Positions 19,730 through 56,375 of a stretch of 64,000 nt of DNA are shown here, in pieces. How positions within the stretch are numbered: the first letter of the stretch is position 1; each line of letters begins with the position of its first letter. The stretch is from the NCBI GenBank assembly GCA_031835245.2, contig JAVKOQ020000009.1, positions 310,001 through 374,000 of the forward strand. The letters run 5' to 3'. This DNA is from Balamuthia mandrillaris (taxonomy: Eukaryota). The position numbers were made by a program, and so were the translations under genes. The notes under the pieces were generated by a model. The model was not told the origin of the DNA. It did no database searches and saw only the letters and a program-made list of their open reading frames with translations.

Positions 19730-20829
19730 CCACCAATTCCGTTTGTTGTTCGCAAGACAAGTCTCCTTTTAACATTACATTTTTCTGTTATTTCCCAACT
19801 GCTACTACTATTGACCAGGCAAATGCTCCACATCCCGTAGATGACCCTCTTTCTCCAGTTTAGCACGTTCAGCACCCAACGCACCATAACATTCGCCAAC
19901 CGTTGCACACTTTTCAATCCAGGTGCTGAGCATGGAGCGCTTCGGGACCTTGTTCACATCAAAGGCCCAGAGCATGGCCATCAACGGCCACACAAAGGCC
20001 TCGCCGACCCGCACCCTCCCTTCCAGCCCCTCCGGCACCACTTCGTGGCCATACTGTCCTTTGGCCGCTGCCAGAATGCAGCCGGTCAGCACCGAGCGAA
20101 AGCTCTGTCGCGAGTAGATATGTTGCACGCAGTCCTTGTAGCATTGAAAGCCCTCAGAGGTAGCTTCCACCGAGAGGCTCCCCAAGAAGCCACCCTTGTG
20201 AGTAAGCTCGGCAACCGCTCTCAGGGTGGAACCGTCCGAGACCCCATTGGTGCACCAAGTCCCACCACCAACAGCATCTTGTTGTTTTGATGAAGGCGAG
20301 GATCGTCCAGGGTGGCTACAGCTGTGATGGAGACGCAGTCCTCAATGGGGTCGCCCAGTCCGTCCTCGTCTCCGGCCATCAGAGAGTCCGAGCCGCCGAG
20401 GAAGTGCACTCGCTGCTGTCCATGACTATCTAAATAACAAGCAATTTGATATAATAATTGCATAGCTCTAATCCATGGATATTCTCCAGTCCTATCCTCT
20501 TGTTCTTTCCAATAAGCTTGTCGTTAAGTGCTGCTTCTTTCTCTTGACTATGCCATAATTGTAAGGCCAAGGGACGGAGTAAGTGCCATGATGTCCGTGC
20601 GGCTGCTGCTGCTGCTAACAAGAAAGCAAAATCATTCTTATTTATATACTACTCAGCATTGACCATCCATCCTAAATCCCATTGATCCCATCATCATCAC
20701 AGTCTCCTCCAAACAACGCGAAACACACCACTTATCGAGGAAGGAGCACATATGGATCTCTGGGGCGTAGTGCTTGCTTGGCACGCTCTCTGCGGTGACT
20801 CGTTTAACTTGCACCGTTCTCTTTGGTTC

Positions 20830-21094
20830 GAAACGGAGTTATCCACGAGAAACTGGGAGGCAAGAAGGTCTTCCGTTGCCCTCGTTGTCACCTGGAAGCG
20901 GACAGAGACATCCATGCGGCCAGGAACATCCTTTTGCGCTTTCTAGCTCGCCAGGACATCATTGTGGACGCGAAGGGAAAAGAAGAGCTGTACGGACAGG
21001 GTCTGGCAGCATTGGGTCCTACCCCCGCGAATGCATTGCCCTCTCGTGGTGCATTTGTGCAAGATTTGCAAAATGTGCAAGTTTAATGTAGGCG
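20830..21094 (+). mobile_element. 5'-truncated TnpB/Fanzor2 (IS607-like) element: nuclease C-terminus plus right end
   Basis: Encodes GVIHEKLGGKKVFRCPRCHLEADRDIHAARNILLRFL, the zinc-ribbon CxxC plus RuvC-III DRD..AARNI of TnpB/Fanzor. Ends at TTTAATGTAGGCG. Flanked by the direct repeat CGTTCTCTTTGGTTC (20815-20829, 21093-21107). Confidence 0.88.
21015..21094 (+). ncRNA. Putative Fanzor omega-RNA scaffold (copy 1)
   Basis: 80 nt overlapping the ORF 3' end. Hairpin CGCGAATGCATTGC/GTGGTGCATTTGTG, second hairpin TTGCA/TGCAA, and CCTAC near the 5' end complementary to terminal GTAGG. Homologous copy at 47554-47633. Confidence 0.7.
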
Positions 21095-21563
21095 TTCTCT
21101 TTGGTTCATCGGGAAGTTGTTCCTCAAAGACCACCGGCGCTTCTCCCTTTATTTCGTCCGTGTCCCCAAAGGAGTAGGACGCGATGACGACCTTCTTGCC
21201 AAGCCTTTTGAGTTCTGGATACAGTATCATGCTGTGCACAAAGTCGAAGCCTCCCCCACACCCGCACAGCATAACCGTTTGTACAGAGGGATCGGCCAGC
21301 CTAGTAACGAATGTTGGCATCAGGAAGGAACTTGGGGTTGCGGGGGAGGCCTTTCCATTACAGCGGCCGCCTTTTCCAGCCCTTTTTGCTTTTACTTGCT
21401 TTTTGCTTTGTCTTTCTTTTCCATCCTTGTTGTAACACCTTATTCTTCCCGTTATATAAGTACTTCATTTTTTGTTGTAAAGAAAAAGTTTAAAGTTCGA
21501 AGCCTGTTCAACGAACGGCAGCAATTGGAGCGAAACTGGGTCAACTGCACTTAACCATAACTG

Positions 21564-23930: not shown

Positions 23931-26900
23931 TCAAGAAAGGGATAAAGAGGAACGGGAAGGGGAGGGAGAGGAGGAGGGTGAGGAGGAGTTGGAGTCAAAC
24001 AGCTTGAACTGAGAGAGCCAGCTGGAGCGATAGTCGGAACGGCATTTGACAAAGTCGAGCAGGTCCGCTCGGTCCATCTTGGCGAGGGCGCTGCTCGACA
24101 GCAGCTCCGACAATTGCTCAGGAGAGACCTGATGGATGTGGGCTACCTCCATCAGCATTGCAAACTTGTCGTTGAGGTTACTGTTCTTTATCTCTTCTTC
24201 TATGCACTTTTTGTACTCTTGTAGGTCCCTTTGTTGCAAACACAGTAAAGAGAAAATAGGTTGGTCAATTGAAAGAAGAAAGCACAAGAGAAACAGAAAG
24301 TGACCAGATCGCTATATTTGTACCTTTGCAACTTCACGCCTCCTAGCCCCTTGCTCACCGGATACTTTTTCAAGTGTGCCATAAGCACTCTTTTTGAAGG
24401 AAAGAAAATAATGAATACTATATGGAGCGGTCGAAGAGAGGGTGAGGAACGAATGTACCTAAAGACCTCGAGACCGTACTCCTCCAAAAAGCTTTGACAG
24501 TTGGCACCATCCAAGTTAGATTGTATGACGGAGACATCAGCCGCGATGGCAGCAACAGCCTGCGCGCAACCAGCGGTCACCTTGTCAATGGCCTCGAAAG
24601 CGTCATCGCTAAGACGAAAGTCTGGTTTCTTCTGCTTGCTTGACAATAACTTGCTCAGATCATTGCTCATCCGTGATAACCAAGACAACAATTAAGGGCG
24701 ATAGTCATATCCAAAACTGAAAAGAAGGAAGAATGAAAGAAGAAAACAAAAAGGATATAATTGAGACAACAATCAAGGCCTTGTGATATGAGATCCTCAA
24801 AATGGTTGAGAAGAGTGTTCTTCTTTTCGAGGCATTGATTTGAAACTGTGCGTGAGGATGACACATGTGGTAGCTATTGATGCGTTTGTTTGCGTTAAGT
24901 ACTTTGAGTTAAACAACCGAATAAAGATAATGTCGTACAATGAGAACATGGAAGTGCCGTTGGATGAGGATAACTATCTGATGGATTAAAATTAACATAG
25001 GTGAGTAAGCTCACACAAATGAATGTTTCTGCTGAAAGTGATATGGGGTGGGGCTGTGAGGCTACACAAGCGCCCGCCCATCACCCACACCACTTCCGTC
25101 GGCTCCATCGGGCAACGCTACGCAACGAGGTTCCGAAGAAGGATGTTGCGCGCTCCATTTACATCGCGATCCAGTCGTATCCCACATAGGAGTCGGCCAG
25201 GCGAGACAGCTAGAAATTTGCTGTCGAACCTCTGTCGACTTGCCCGAGGGAGCCAACGGGAAACGTGGGATGTTTTGGGAAAATACTCAGAAAAACGAAA
25301 TTTCACTTACCTGGTTCACTTGTTGCGTTATTTGGAAGAATGTCGTTGGGGAAGTGCTACTCTTTCTCTTTTTCAATTGCAGAAGGGCACTGAAAGAAGT
25401 TTATGAGCCAAAAAACAACTTGAAGAAAGCGGGTCCATATATACGTACTGTTCAAGAGCTGGACTGAGATATCTGTAGCCCAGGTACTCCAGTAACATCT
25501 CGAAAATTTGATAGAGATTCTGCGAGCTAAAAAGGGGCAACAACAATCCTTAGCGTTCTTTTCAACAATAAACGGCGAGAAGGAAACGTACATGTCTTCC
25601 TTGGAAGAAAGCTCCAAACAACGTTCCACAGCACCCTCACTGCAATGGAGAAAGGCAAAGATGGGTTCCAGCGAGGTTAGGGCTGTTACCGTTGCCAGTT
25701 TTGGTGTTTTTGAGTTTGTGGGTGCGCCGGGCCAACTTCGGGAAGCTCTATTCTTCTCTGCTTCCTGTGTCGAATGGAAACAAATTAGCCAGGCTCATGC
25801 ACAAACAACTCAAGCAAACAAACCTGTTGCAGCTGAGCCAAGTGATTCTCATAAAAGAGACGAAGGTATTTGGTCTCGTTTGAAATGTAGCTGGACATGT
25901 ACTTGTAGAATAAGGACTGCACCATGGAACTAAAATCAAACTGACCAATGTTATATTCTTGCAGAACCTTCACGAACTGACAAGTTTCTGCATGGGCCGA
26001 TTTTAAGATGCGGAGGTAAAACAACAGGGACTCGGGGGATGAGTCTCGAATGTTCAGCATCTTCTCCAAGAACATGCCGATCTACAGCCCGAAGAGAGAG
26101 TTAGAGAGAAATAGAAAGGAAAAAAAGTACTAAGTTAGAGGATGAGGAATGGGTAAATAATAGAGCTGCAATGGATAATACCCGTTGTTCGAAAATCCGT
26201 TGTGCCAACTCTCTCATGACAACTGCTGGATTAGGAAAAACCTTGCTTATGACCTCGTATTCATGCTTGCAAGCGTGCGTTATATCATAGAAGAATGCAT
26301 GTATTCTCGCATCCTCTTTAGTATCTTCCAGTTCGTTTGTGCTGATAGATAACGTTATAAGAGACGAGTAACAGAGATAGAGAGAGAGAGAGAGAGAGAG
26401 AACAATAAAATACCTAATTCTATGTTCACCTGCCTCTGCAAGGGCTGAATCCATATTGATACTCTCAGTATCGAAAAACATGTTCAACTTCATGATATAA
26501 TGCCGGATGCAAGACCCACAGCCATTGAATTCATTCAAGATCGAAGCAACTTCCTATAAAAGCACAAGAAGGATGAAGGTGAATATATGGGCGGTGCCAT
26601 GAATAAACAAATGAGGGCTTTGAATTGCAAGGTAGTACCTTCATCTTTGCATAGTCGTTGCGCTGAGAGGCTTCATCAAATTCCTGTAAGAGCTTGTTTT
26701 CCAACTTGTTACTTTCCTTCTCCACTGCTTCTTTTCCCTAAAGGGGACATAACCTCACCGTAAGCAAACCAATATTTGGGATGGAAATAGTACCATAAAG
26801 AAGGAGAGAGAGAGAGAGAGAAGAAGAAGAAGAAGAAGAAGAAGAAGAAGAAGAAGAAGAAGAACCTCTTTGGTGCGATCTAACAAATGCTCATTCAAGC

Positions 26901-44593: not shown

Positions 44594-47230
44594 TTACTTG
44601 TGCTTCTCACTGCCGCTGCTGCTTCCAGCTCCTTGGGCATAGATAGGGTGAGAGAAGTGGGTGGCAGCATCAATAAAGGCCGTTTCTTGGGAGCTGTAAG
44701 CATCGATTTGTTTCTTGAGGGCCTTCTCTTCCTCCTCGAGCTTGCTCTTGGTGGCGCTGACCTCAAAGATCTGCTCGAGCTGGTCGTCACCAAGGGTGGA
44801 GACCTTGCCCTGAATCTCGTTCCACAGCTCGGTTTGCATTGGCACCAAAAGGAAGTTGTAGAACTTGAGCAGGATGTTTTTGGTGATGCGATCCCTCAGC
44901 CGTGTGAACAGCTCCTTGGTGAGCTGCTCGACGGCCTTCTTGGTCTCTTCCGCATCCGTGCGGTCCATTGGGAGGTTGCGATCAGCATACTCGGTGTACT
45001 CCCAGTAGATGGTTCTGGTGCCATAAAACTCGTCCAAGCACTTGGTGAGCATCCTCTTGGAGCACAGCTCCACAAACTTGTTGTAGAGGTCCTTGACGTG
45101 ATAGGTGAAGAAGGGATACATATCAATGTCGTTCACATCCACAGAGGTGGGATCGTGGCTGCCAGTCTGCCACTTGGCGTTCCGTCTGGAGTCCACTATC
45201 TTCTCCACGATGTCAGTCAGACGGAGCAGCACGTAAACAGCACGACGGCAGGTTTGCTCAATGAGAGGAACCAGCTCCTCTCTGGCCTTCTGTTGAGCCA
45301 GGTCGCTGGCAGCCCAAGCATAGTTCGGGATGTTGTTCAGCTTGTTGATTCCAGCCGCGGTGGCAATGTCGTCCATGCTGATGTCAGGGAGCTTCTGGTG
45401 GTCGGCTACGGCCTTGAACTCTGCCAACAACCTCTCAAACTGCTGCCCTCCGTAGAGCTTGCTGTCCCAGTAGGGGATGTTCCACTCCTCTGGGTCCAGC
45501 CTGATGGTCTTCTTATTGGAGTCCAGCCAATCACCATCTCCAGACTGGGCCTTCTCCTCCTCCAAAGTCTGACCGTTGACAGCAGGGTTGCCCTCCGAGG
45601 TGCCAGCAAGCAGCTTGTCTACCGCTTGCAAAAAGTCGATGACATAGTTGCTGGCGATGGAGCGCAGCTTGACGCTGTTGAGGCCCTGCAGTTGAGCCTG
45701 CACTTGGGCCAGGCGGAGTTGGGTATCCACTTTGTTTGCCCTGAGACGCTTTAGGATCTGAGGGATGGCGTCCTGGTACTTCTTCCAGGTGAGGTTCAGC
45801 AGGTATTGTCTCAGCTGAAGGATGCCCACGCTGGACTCGTATCTTCTGTCATACTGGAGCTGCTCCAAGGAGCGAAGGTCGCGCCTAACTGCCTGGTAGA
45901 TTTTCTCTTGGAACTTGGCAGGATCCTTGAACTTGGCCCTCACCTTTGGGGAGAGGCTCGTCGTAAAGAAGCACTTAGCGTCGGGGAGTGAGCCTCCGAG
46001 GTAGCGGTTGACCTGCCTTGTGGAGGTAAACCTCTGCAGGTGGAAGTAGAACTTTGTGTAGACAAAGGTCGTGCGGGAAAACTCAGGGTCCACCTGTTTG
46101 ATGAACTCAAACATGTCCAATTTGTCCCAGTCCTTGGCCTCTTCCACGCAGAGTATGAGCCTGTGGGGGTACTTGACAGTGTTGTAGACGATGGCCTGTA
46201 CGTCTCCACATTGGCTGTCCTCCTCGTCCTTGATGAGTCCTGGTGTATCGATAAGGGTCATGTTACAGCAGTACTTGTATTCATATTGTACATAAATAGG
46301 GTCTTCCGAGTATTTCGAGATCTTATTTCTCTTTTCCAGCTCTCCGCTAAGGTCACTGACCGAGACAGTCACATCATGGTCGTAGTCCTGTCCTTTCAGC
46401 AGCGAATCTCTCTTAATAGTCACTTTGGGTTTATCGAACTTTGGGTTGTTGATTATCCTTAAGTAAACTGGTCTTTTGGTAGCTCGTTCAGTAGGGGTTA
46501 AGGTAGATATTTCTCTCTAGAGAGAGAGAGAGAACAGAGGAGAGAGAGCAGAGAGTTTTAACAAACAAAAACCAAAGTTGGAAAGGATATCATAGCCAAG
46601 ATGACTGACAGACTGACCAAGGAAGCCTTCAATGAGGCTGGACTTACCCTGACCCTGGTAGCCAAGCAACACAATCTCGGGAGTGACGATTTGGATGTTG
46701 AGCTCTCGGGCATAACCTTGAAGTTTGTCATAGGAAGTGAAGACCTCTGGAAAGTTGCCAAAAGGGAACAGTTTGTAAATCTCTTTGTAATCCACAGAAG
46801 AGTCCATCGGAACAGATTCTAACGATTGGATCTCGCTTTCTTCGTCCTCGGCTTCCTCCATCCTTCTGCGCTCTTCGTCGAGTTTCTTTTTTTCTGCCTG
46901 CTCCTTCTTTTTCTTTCTGTCATCGTCCCTCCTTTGCTTAACGTCTTCTTTTTTCTTGTCCTCATCCTTTCTCTTTCTCCTTTCTTCCTCTTCTCTCTTT
47001 ACTGCATCATCGTCTCCCTTGCGGGATTCGTCTTCTTCGGTTTTCTTTTGCTCCGGTTCATTGGCCGTGGATCGTTTTTCAGTAGATAGGCTCTTGCGCT
47101 TCTCTACCTCGGCCTCAGTGGAAGTTCGTGCTGCGATGATGGCCAAACCAATCAGATAAGCACAAAAAAAATACTGAGAACAATAGCGTACCTTTATCTT
47201 CCTCCTTGGCCTTTTTCTTGCTCTCCTTCT
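44594..47230 (-). CDS. Dynamin-like GTPase, Dlp/ARC5(DRP5) clade
   Basis: PEIVLLGYQGQGKSSLIEGFLG (G1), TKRPV (G2), LIDTPGL (G3), FVYTKF, KLYGGQQFERLLAEF. The charged N-terminus and true start are uncertain. Confidence 0.9.
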
Positions 47231-47462
47231 CCTTGCGTCCCTTGAACATACCTCAAATAGTGTCTCTACTTTTCTAGGAGTCAAGAAGAAAAAATGAAAG
47301 AACTACAAAATAGCAAGGTACCACAGTGCCTCTTTCAAAGTACGATGCTTGGATTTAAAAAAATCCAAATAAAAAGTCTTAGGATAAATTTGGTGAAGAG
47401 ACACCCAACAACCAATAGCGTAAATCTGTCGACATCCGCCTAATAAACTCGAGGGGTCTTAT

Positions 47463-47756
47463 TTGTTCACGCCAAAATTTCATCAAGGAATACAACGACT
47501 GGAAAGAAAAGGAAGGACCAAGACGGGTCCAGAAGCTGTTCAGTTCGTAGGAGCGCCTACATTAAACTTGCACATTTTGCAAATCTTGCACAAATGCACC
47601 ACAATGGGTGGATGCATTCACGGGTGTAGGACCTTGTATGAGCGCTTGTTAGTTTTACAGCAGACAATGATGGAAACCCTCAAAATGCAGGATGAGGCGA
47701 TCGCATTGGTGGACAAGCTGGAGGAAAGGAATCGCAAACAAAGAAAGTGGTTATGA
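47463..47756 (+). other. Short helical ORF or gene fragment carrying an in-frame 90-nt insertion
   Basis: Removing 47544-47633 restores EAVQLYERLLVLQQTMMETLKMQDEAIALVDKLEE, which reads as an amphipathic, TPR-like helix. Expression unknown. Confidence 0.35.
47554..47633 (-). ncRNA. Putative Fanzor omega-RNA scaffold (copy 2, ORF-less)
   Basis: The reverse complement, GGTCCTACACCCGTGAATGCATCCACCCATTGTGGTGCATTTGTGCAAGATTTGCAAAATGTGCAAGTTTAATGTAGGCG, aligns end to end with 21015-21094. The 3' part is identical and the differences cluster in and near hairpin 1. Confidence 0.8.
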
Positions 47757-47911
47757 AGGAACACAACGTAAGCGGAACACCCATGAAATGTCGTTAACGC
47801 CAGCATTGCCATGCTGGCTGGATTCAAGGTGTTGTTGATACACCTAAATATCAAAACTGCACATACACAAATAACAAATGTAGATTGGAAGGAAGAAGAA
47901 CAAAAGGATGT

Positions 47912-49553
47912 TTAACCACTTGTAGAAGAACCAGTGCTGCCGTAGGTGGGAGGCGTGGTGTTGTAGGGAGAGTAAGGCGAGTTCTCTCCCACGAAGAAAC
48001 GGGGGCTTGGGCTGTAATTTGTCGTTGGAGGAGCTTCCTCGTCGGAATCGTAACGCTGTGGGTTGTCAAAAAGCAAAGATGAACGGACCGTGGGGTGTTG
48101 CAGAGGACTCTCATCTAAGTAATTTTTTCGTGGTTAGGGCAGAGGCCAAAAAAAAAGGATTAACAAGGATAAAAACGACCTGGACCAAGCGGCTCGTTTA
48201 TTATGCCTCTTCTCGTGGAAGTAACGCTTGCAAGACGAGCTCTATAAACAGAGGAGCTGGGAATGTAATAACCTGAATTAAGGCCAGTTATACAGAACAA
48301 AGCACGATTGCATAACACAACATGACAGACACGAACACACACGCATACACACAAATTGCACAAAAAAGTGAAAGGATATCCGCCAGAAAAGAAGGATGAC
48401 AAGAGAGGCTGGAATGATCTCCCACACAAAGAACAGCATAAATACAATCCCATCCTGCCAAGCAAACCCCTAAAGTGGTAACAAGAAAATAATGTTTGGA
48501 TGAGAAATGAAGGTTGTTGTTGGGAGTAGAGCAGACAGCATACGCTTTCAACAGCAAGGCTGATTACTCCAAAGGCCGCTAATACGTTGTACACAGCACG
48601 AGTCGTGAAGAGGAAAAACATAAGTACAGTGACTGCAATAACGTAAATAGGAGAGGTCCTTTGGGGCTGGAATGGAATCTTTACAGCAAAAAAACTTGCA
48701 TGCATCAGAAAAGCAAAGATGAAGGGCGACGCAACCAAGGAGAGAACACGAGTAAACCAAACCTGGATTTGTCCTTTTTTCATGAGTAGATACACCTTCC
48801 ACCCATAAAAAGCCAAAATGGTGACAAGGAAGCAGAAAATAACAGCAGTAAGGGTGTTCAGAGACTTGGTCTCCCACTTCCCTGAGCTCTTCAGGTCCTC
48901 TTTTCTTCCTATGACTGACATCACAATAGTAGTGGCTAACGCAACAGTGTTACTTGAGCCAAAAATAATAGAGAGAGAGCGAGAGAGAGAGAGAGAGAGA
49001 GAGAAGAGAAGTTTGGAGGATGGCTTTAGCTCAGTACCGATAGTACACGACAAGAAGATAAGGTTCACCACGATGTAAATAAAGCAAAAGATCTTTCTTC
49101 TCTGGTACCACACTTTGTTGCTACGGGCATCTATACTGGCGTAAAACAGGACGAGAAGCGAAAAGGTTGAAAACTGTATGTTCACAGCGATCCTGTGTAA
49201 CACGAACAAACAGACCATCCGTCAACGAAGCAGTAAAACGAGAAGGAAAAAAAGCACCAAACCAGAATATGAAGACAGGGAGACCGGCGTTGATCAGCTT
49301 ATCAAAGTAGTCTATCATGAGAAAGTAAACGCAGCGAAGCATCGCCCAAAACTTTTTTCGAATAGGTTGTGGAAGCAAAATAATGGGTCAGAGTGAGCAC
49401 CGACAAGAAACAGAGAAGCGGTAGTGAAGATACACACCAGGCATTGAATCAAAAAGCCAAACTGCCAAGACAATAGGTTGTGTCTGATGGGTAAAATTTG
49501 TCGTCGGGGGCTCGTTCACGCGCATATTCTGCAATTAATCCAGCAATAGCCCT

Positions 49554-56219: not shown

Positions 56220-56309
56220 TTTTCCTCTCCCTCCTGTGGGAATTTACAACAGGGCATTCCTCTTTTACTATGTGATATTTATCAAAAGATAACGCTTATG
56301 CTTATGTCT

Positions 56310-56339
56310 TTTGCCACACTTCAAGATTTAATGTAGGCG
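56310..56339 (+). mobile_element. Possible degraded right-end fragment of the same Fanzor family
   Basis: CAAGATTTAATGTAGGCG versus the scaffold terminus CAAGTTTAATGTAGGCG, in the intergenic gap between STAT and DHX16. Confidence 0.4.
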
Positions 56340-56375
56340 CCTTAGTGCTGCCTTTCACAATTTACAGGACAAAAT

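Follow-up and report, generated by a model that had tools for sequence, protein, structure and literature searches.

The closest precedent for the locus described here, as far as the accessible part of the report goes, is the set of truncated Fanzor1 copies in Chlamydomonas reinhardtii. Copies of the Fanzor1-Helitron2 elements CRe-1, CRe-2, and CRe-3 have intact 3' ends, truncated 5' ends, and duplications of 7-19 bp directly behind a fixed motif, TTTT, and were attributed, at a time when RNA guidance was still undiscovered, to one-ended rolling-circle transposition (Bao & Jurka 2013, PMC3627910). The truncated copies can include sequence lying 5' of the element itself, pointing to a DNA template there (PMC3627910). 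An RNA-guided explanation of truncated copies was not found in the literature consulted.

Several other systems are relevant, again as described in the portions of the reports available. IS607 elements usually have GG as their core, and a canonical insertion is a full-length element that closes with GG and lacks a duplication; homing of TnpB elements by cutting and recombination is established for IS605 and IS607 (PMC10711439, PMC13565253, 10.1101/2023.11.20.567912). The omega-RNAs of IS605 and IS607 elements have a three-hairpin scaffold with a nexus hairpin and a predicted pseudoknot (10.1101/2023.11.20.567912). Fanzor 'ghost' loci, which have an omega-RNA without the protein, were proposed to supply guides in trans, and a figure legend points to such loci for Fanzor2 of Naegleria and Mercenaria as well (Saito et al. 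2023, PMC10432273). Two Fanzor2 nucleases have known cut sites: NlovFz2 uses the TAM CCG and cuts after base 19, and MmeFz2 cuts after bases 17-18 and 9-14, with the target-strand cut at +9..+14 and 3' overhangs at the ends (PMC10432273). We also set the locus beside two further reports (PMC10530073, PMC11832414), in the parts available. In the literature consulted there was no account of such stubs in Balamuthia and none that named Balamuthia and Fanzor together; figures and supplements on the Naegleria and Mercenaria ghosts may already show such stubs.

We analysed 64,000 nucleotides of Balamuthia mandrillaris DNA (the window) and found that an 80-nt insert at 47554..47633 on the minus strand (copy 2) is a genuine feature, the 3' end of a multicopy Fanzor2/IS607-like element of this organism. 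Copy 2 comprises the final 23 codons of the Fanzor tail, the stop codon, the right end, and a predicted three-hairpin omega-RNA scaffold, and is identical at 72 of 80 nt to the 3' end of another copy in the window (copy 1, plus strand, 21015-21094; blastn E 8e-27). A preliminary description had called copy 2 an omega-RNA-sized right end of copy 1's element that lacks RuvC and zinc-ribbon coding; both points hold, although the tail codons and stop are included. On the minus strand the order is GCG (47645-47643), CTCATACAA (47642-47634), the insert (47633-47554), and CTCCTACGAA (47553-47544). The plus-strand frame is open across the insert (ORF 47424-47756). There is no A-rich or simple-repeat 3' tail, and the end of copy 2 abuts native flank. 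Its terminal CG (47554..47555, minus), a putative recombinase core and TAM end, replaces the CG of the native CCG motif; in an S2 contig, non-element DNA ending in C is followed by CG and the guide. At both copies CG ends the element as well as the motif, which is CCG at copy 1 also.

Copy 1 fits the Chlamydomonas pattern of 5' truncation, motif, and 7-19-nt duplication exactly. It is a 265-nt, 5'-truncated element (20830..21094, plus) with a zinc ribbon and RuvC-III DRD motif (PF07282, 29.7 bits, cut-off 26.3), and its left duplicate, CCG plus 13 nt (20814..20829, plus), has an exact right match at 21095-21107. Copy 2 differs from the CRe copies in having no duplication and, instead, a deletion to a near-cognate site, and the Balamuthia elements are of Fanzor2 type with [C/G]CG rather than Fanzor1 in Helitrons with TTTT. 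The likeness to IS607 and IS607EU elements (carrying TnpB or Fanzor2) lies in a right-end dinucleotide that also ends the TAM, a three-hairpin scaffold with a predicted pseudoknot, and possible restorative homing by cutting and gene conversion, to the extent covered by the available text (PMC10711439, PMC13565253, 10.1101/2023.11.20.567912), whereas the Balamuthia copies are CG-ended, 5'-truncated, and scarred rather than full-length and GG-ended. Because the left end is missing from both copies and copy 1 has a 13-nt duplication, we regard them as derived pieces and not canonical insertions. SINEs and other retroposed small-RNA copies are short, protein-less, dispersed copies of structured RNA. 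Copy 2 shares these properties, but has neither a duplication nor an A-tail, host DNA was deleted, and the site was apparently chosen by TAM and guide. Like the ghost loci, copy 2 has an omega-RNA scaffold without the protein; however, in the part of that report available, the Spu-1 ghosts are ~550 nt and keep both ends (PMC10432273), and copy 2, missing its left end, would not be movable by a transposase. By the features tested, copy 2 behaves like a TnpB homing scar and is not a canonical IS607EU insertion, a ghost locus, or a SINE.

The flanks of copy 2 in element-free alleles

Both flanks of copy 2 are native host sequence. Among the longer relatives of the small protein annotated at this locus (2 matches among 46 candidates) we found QOT17_023511 (P0165), a 407-aa DUF7869 transposase-like protein (score 0.95, together with structure matches) with an end that reads ...ALHTHY RSYEPNSFWTRLGPSFSFQSLY DRLLVLEQTMM.... 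The C-terminal end of this gene (residues 368-407) lies at 47634..47756 on the plus strand (37/41 identical; in tblastn, residues 366-406 match from 47628, 37/41). Residues 348-369 are encoded on the minus strand at 47490..47555 (tblastn, 21/22 identical), in a host segment that is inverted relative to the element-free allele, and residues 1-347 had no match in the window at E 0.01.

The element-free arrangement was found in contigs from S2 (X2 record 10 and X3 record 17). In these, 47634 is joined to 47507 on opposite strands, and the sequence continues to 47555 with no differing letter and then into non-element DNA, of which 30 letters, translated by hand, read LVKKALHTHY. The right flank of copy 2, the would-be guide CTCCTACGAA (47544..47553, minus), is element-free in these contigs and is found in QOT17_023511 as RSYE. 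In the element-free alleles, CCG-CTCCTACGAA and GCG-CTCATACAA are thus native sites on opposite strands, face to face and about 50 nt apart (48 nt from the end of the guide to the shared hexamer), and the native protein reads ...RSYEPNSFWTRLGPSFSFQSLYDRLL....

These alleles do not bear out the preliminary description of copy 2 as having the same target-duplication signature as copy 1. The two flanks are separate host sites on opposite strands, and a true 13-nt duplication is present only at copy 1. Removal of the insert had been thought to restore EAVQ-LYERLL, but this was not the pre-insertion protein, because both flanks are native in the element-free allele. The guide had been taken for an imperfect, hence foreign, copy of the target; it is the locus's own flank, and contains no foreign letter since both it and its look-alike are native. 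The supposed target copy is the older sequence. With both sites standing in element-free DNA, the two mismatches predate the insert and are uninformative about a donor, and the open frame through the insert is coincidental. The copy 2 locus itself does not show capture of a guide in trans.

We conclude that the window allele is derived relative to the element-free allele. It has the host segment in reverse orientation and has lost at least 347 codons of QOT17_023511; between the target's CG and base +9 of the look-alike stands the end of the element. In run X1, one contig was identical to the window across 47325-47519 (0 differences, depth 48), including the inversion's other junction, and another, at equal depth, departed at 47555 into 189 non-window letters. 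These contigs suggest an inverted yet element-free haplotype, and the inversion may therefore be earlier than the patch. Several haplotypes of the locus were present within one sample (depths of 48, 43, and 26 in X1); we found nothing on Balamuthia ploidy in the literature. None of the 24 pieces listed (of 93, runs X1-X3) contained the joints between element and host found in the window, so S1 and S2 probably lack copy 2. We saw no allele here that carries the full element.

The NCBI model QOT17_001986 (104 aa; 47290-47756, plus) is likely spurious, made up of the inverted host piece, element antisense, and the tail of the DUF7869-like gene. We considered and rejected it as a true host gene: its only homologue was itself (1 of 5 candidates) and its Atlas scores were at most 0.80. 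Nearby, haplotypes differ by many substitutions and indels in 47299-47480, a stretch that lies directly upstream of a dynamin-like gene, and in S2 the motif CGCCAAAATTT recurred directly after 47480. Of the sequence words in 46800-48400, 7-15% were present in runs X15-X20 (three other organisms plus two soil samples), as word matches only.

The look-alike site and possible signs of cutting

The left junction of copy 2 lies at a near-cognate site of the guide, in agreement with an earlier suggestion that a near-cognate target had been cut. The site, GCG plus CTCATACAA (47634..47645, minus), is older host sequence that is element-free in the same two S2 records; it has a mismatch to the guide at position 4 and is broken at base +9. 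There were 13 sites of this quality in 128 kb of strand, counting the guide site. Random junctions passed in 47 of 200,000 cases with the [C/G]CG motif, 116 of 200,000 with NCG, and 48 of 80,000 with 3 nt of slack, and the chance of so good a look-alike at a random junction is about 2-6e-4, by a criterion set after seeing the case.

S2 likely carries an 8-nt deletion at +11..+20 of the CCG target. The S2 piece across 47507-47555 has 41 letters over 49 places, with 0 other letters and 8 gaps, and the deletion would lie at 47534..47541, between two AG dinucleotides. Depth bins place 4 of the 8 gap places in 47514-47537, consistent with a single 8-nt deletion; one placement at 47510 (3 nt from the piece's end) or two 4-nt gaps also fit the arithmetic. 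The cut range of NlovFz2 and MmeFz2, +9..+19, fits the copy 2 junction at +9, the 13-nt duplication at copy 1, and the probable S2 deletion, and the TAM of NlovFz2, CCG, is that of the Balamuthia copies. These nucleases are from other hosts, and cutting in Balamuthia is read only from the positions of junctions. We read copy 2 as a probable repair scar at a site that the nuclease of the element had cut.

The element family and its predicted omega-RNA scaffold

The summed contig depth at the element end was ~30-100x that of the flanks in three runs (not a copy number), and at least 7-8 contigs per run, among those listed, left the right end into other flanks. We conclude from this depth and these contigs that the family is multicopy, and its dispersal, anticipated earlier, was borne out. 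An exact 20-mer of the right end had 0 matches in viral contigs and 0 in metagenome contigs. The scaffold variant of copy 2 was also found in a longer copy with a different flank, P0166 (QOT17 'Transposase'), where 26 antisense residues are identical and the element continues for ~230 codons. Judged by this match, the variant is an existing subfamily, and copy 2 is independent of copy 1, as had been proposed. P0166 also contains an N-terminal HTH_OrfB_IS605 domain (PF12323, 38.4 bits), running opposite to the copy-2-type end in the same record. The P0166 model, antisense of a long 3' part followed by the sense N-terminal Fanzor part, is itself a second rearranged, head-to-head copy.

The relatives of the element indicate the kind of parent it had. 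Copy 1 was 66-71% identical to four longer relatives, and the nearest proteins were of Fanzor2 type. The catalytic E, expected some six residues ahead of the zinc finger, was present in the close matches P0003 and P0011 and in 38 of 160 related loci; it lies outside both window copies, and for Balamuthia was read only by eye, in the antisense frame of P0166. The 92 longer candidates included no intact Balamuthia Fanzor (4 matches, none from the Balamuthia family), and no intact nuclease was a close match among the 150 representatives listed. A match to an IS607-type resolvase was found in 13 of the 38 Fanzor2-type related loci (18 of all 160), and in P0012 the resolvase is fused to a TnpB end; in Balamuthia neither a serine-recombinase TnpA/transposase nor the left end of the element was seen. 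There were no bracketing repeats at related loci L081 and L084, and no relatives of P0003 in viral contigs.

The 5' ends of the copies vary. Known ends leave 265 nt (copy 1), 80 nt (copy 2), ~36-39 nt (one X1 contig), and ~690+ nt or ~230 codons (P0166), so that 1 of 4 is at the nexus hairpin, and a comparison of 5' junctions across copies, suggested in the preliminary description, gave no clustering at GGTCCTAC. Two loose ends, X3 47601 and X1 47603, were rejected as 5' junctions because they are diverged scaffold variants. Excision of copy 1 leaves 115 codons in frame with no stop; the gene that it interrupts (20656-21278, minus) has a weak match to DUF1152 (E 0.074). A possible third, older right-end remnant (copy 3; 56322..56339, plus) matched at 18 of 19 nt and was ~70% alike over 46 columns; its exact 13-mer occurred 3 times, against a mean expectation of 0.88 at up to 2 mismatches. 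The surroundings of copy 3 (56290-56365, plus) lie between two convergent genes, with a weak flank look-alike after ACG ~45 nt upstream. Separately, a remnant of a second Fanzor/TnpB family lies at 25121-25193 on the minus strand (CGIRLDRDVNGARNILLRNLV; PF07282 E 2.5e-4), beginning 7 nt past CCG and bracketed by a 20-nt, 90% inverted repeat (25096-25115 / 25240-25259); no clear duplication was found there.

Some unrelated loci have guide seeds of 6-8 nt in common. The flank of copy 3 and that of one X1 contig share 8 nt, CCTTAGTG (3.5e-5 per pair; ~5e-4 over some 15 pairs). TCAACA was found in mixed flank rows of X1 and X3 (agreement 0.48-0.55) and after CCG at one 5' end of a short copy in X1. 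These shared seeds are the best lead for action in trans, and a thin one.

Copy 2 likely contains the whole minimal scaffold, beginning at its first base, in this one case. Its folded form is predicted to have two long hairpins closed by CCUAC/GUAGG (z -2.45; 4 of 200 shuffles equally good), and that of copy 1 had a z of -3.89. A small hairpin is possible in the first 11 nt of copy 2, with CCUAC in its loop. This putative nexus hairpin, GGT-CCTAC-ACC (47623..47633, minus), could form a pseudoknot with GTAGG at 47560-47556, as suggested by the local fold, the pair count, and the architecture given in the available part of 10.1101/2023.11.20.567912. In the pair count, 96% of 52 cells were paired, compared with 23-50% after sliding (two sequences only). 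Three hairpins, with the first loop pairing with the 3' end, are a feature of omega-RNA scaffolds that copy 2 shares in prediction, and because the 11-nt hairpin fits the IS605/IS607 nexus and pseudoknot, the scaffold would be complete; the earlier view that the insert starts at the first structured element agrees with this fold. In longer copies an additional hairpin lies 5 nt upstream of the copy 2 5' end. No Rfam family exceeded threshold (2 weak matches), and no nucleotide similarity to the scaffold was found among 160 related loci (a single match, E 0.23). In RNA run X22 (12.9 million records), 9 reads were placed, 8 of them on the element and all in one direction; 6 extended into longer copies, and none of those listed came from the joints of copy 2. 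Small RNAs are lost in such libraries.

Possible origins of copy 2

Our leading explanation, held tentatively, is that copy 2 is the scar of a Fanzor cut whose repair began to copy an element-bearing DNA template, broke off early, and was completed by end-joining. On another copy of the chromosome, a full element would once have entered the CCG site at its CG, and its omega-RNA would have used that flank as guide. The nuclease, guided by the locus's own flank, would then have cut an empty allele at both the CCG site and the GCG look-alike, freeing the DNA between; the guide-side end would have invaded the filled allele, synthesis would have halted after 80 nt, and end-joining would have linked the new strand to the look-alike's stump at base +9. 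The same route, with the stump of the same site, would give the perfect 13-nt duplication of copy 1. We rank DNA-templated homing first because one route yields both copies, bacterial TnpB homing has been shown, and several haplotypes coexist, which makes an allelic template plausible. It is also favored by the element-free allele in QOT17_023511 and the S2 contigs, by the position of the left junction at a near-cognate site, by the fit of the probable S2 deletion to the Fanzor2 cut range, by the variation of 5' ends within the family, and by the right junction, which is the exact CG/flank joint expected, from the portions of the IS607 literature available, of an IS607-type insertion or its copy. 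Against it, the full-element allele and an intact Balamuthia Fanzor were not found in our searches, two cuts are needed, one of them at a site with a position-4 mismatch, and the order of inversion then patch is deduced from X1 contigs, with the contigs listed lacking the window's element junctions. Under this route, the exact coincidence of the 5' end with the first scaffold hairpin would be a matter of chance, and guide seeds shared by unrelated loci are not something that allelic homing predicts.

Those last two observations keep an RNA-templated patch in play, although we consider it rather doubtful. Here the RNP would have cut the target, and the guide-paired 3' end of the target strand would have been extended by reverse transcriptase or polymerase theta along a mature omega-RNA, from the allele or from a same-seed locus, to the RNA's 5' end, with the cDNA joined at the look-alike stump. 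The 5' junction at the first base of the predicted nexus hairpin, with the whole three-hairpin scaffold retained, fits this well, as do seeds shared across loci (8 nt between copy 3 and X1; TCAACA) and the single direction of the 8 of 9 placed RNA reads on the element; in the part of that report available, the SpuFz1 scaffold, at 75 nt, is of similar size, and the 3' overhangs of MmeFz2, whose target-strand cut is at +9..+14, give a geometry suited to priming (PMC10432273). However, copy 2 is a single case with no foreign letter in its right flank, the other 5' ends are at 265, ~36-39, and ~690+ nt, the extra hairpin just upstream in longer copies means that the RNA 5' end may differ, the RNA reads derive from longer copies, and the seed rows are partly mixtures (agreement 0.48-0.55). 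A self-inflicted deletion, in which the guide of a full recombinase insertion directed a cut at the look-alike on its own chromosome, and resection plus end-joining then left 80 nt, with no templated copying, is unlikely. It needs one cut, explains why the right joint is exact and why the left one lies at the look-alike, and would remove a nuclease that would otherwise keep cutting, but it requires kilobases of one-sided resection, there is no microhomology at the joint, and the S2 deletion indicates that the CCG site was likely cut while empty. Since it cannot give the 13-nt duplication of copy 1, the family would need a copying route anyway.

An assembly artefact or chance rearrangement, such as a chimeric join of a repeat with a heterozygous rearranged locus, is improbable. 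None of the 24 pieces listed of 93 (X1-X3) spans an element junction at the site, and the annotated model with the insert may stem from the window's own assembly; yet the inversion's other junction is present in X1 at depth 48, with 0 differences over 47325-47519, both element joints are at mechanistically exact places, and the scaffold variant is a real subfamily. We give almost no weight to an imperfect target-site duplication, that is, a foreign omega-RNA inserted in frame into a small coiled-coil gene. The open frame and the inclusion of the insert in QOT17_001986 are in its favor, but the two supposed copies stand apart in element-free alleles, the native gene encodes the 407-aa DUF7869-like protein on one strand through both pieces, and QOT17_001986 has no homologue of its own length. 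Conversion of the guide within a quasi-palindrome (a GTAGG/CCTAC hairpin with the element end) was dropped once the guide proved native.

Beyond this locus, we raise the speculative and on balance unlikely idea that the family spreads without a transposase: the Balamuthia Fanzor2 RNP would cut wherever TAM and seed match, the omega-RNA would be reverse-transcribed from the cut strand, and the stub would become a new guide locus. If true, loci with shared seeds would form lineages, and Balamuthia would have a natural counterpart of prime editing, an RNA-addressed retroposition in which host genes are also deleted and inverted.

The role of Fanzor in its own eukaryotic genomes is still inferred from bacteria. 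At this locus, one target is found in three natural states: intact, with a likely 8-nt deletion in the cut window, and with an element-patched deletion that ends at a near-cognate site; a second locus, copy 1, has the clean motif and a 13-nt duplication. With many such stubs in an amoeba of several haplotypes, in vivo cutting, homing, the choice of DNA or RNA template, and off-target damage become testable from existing assemblies.
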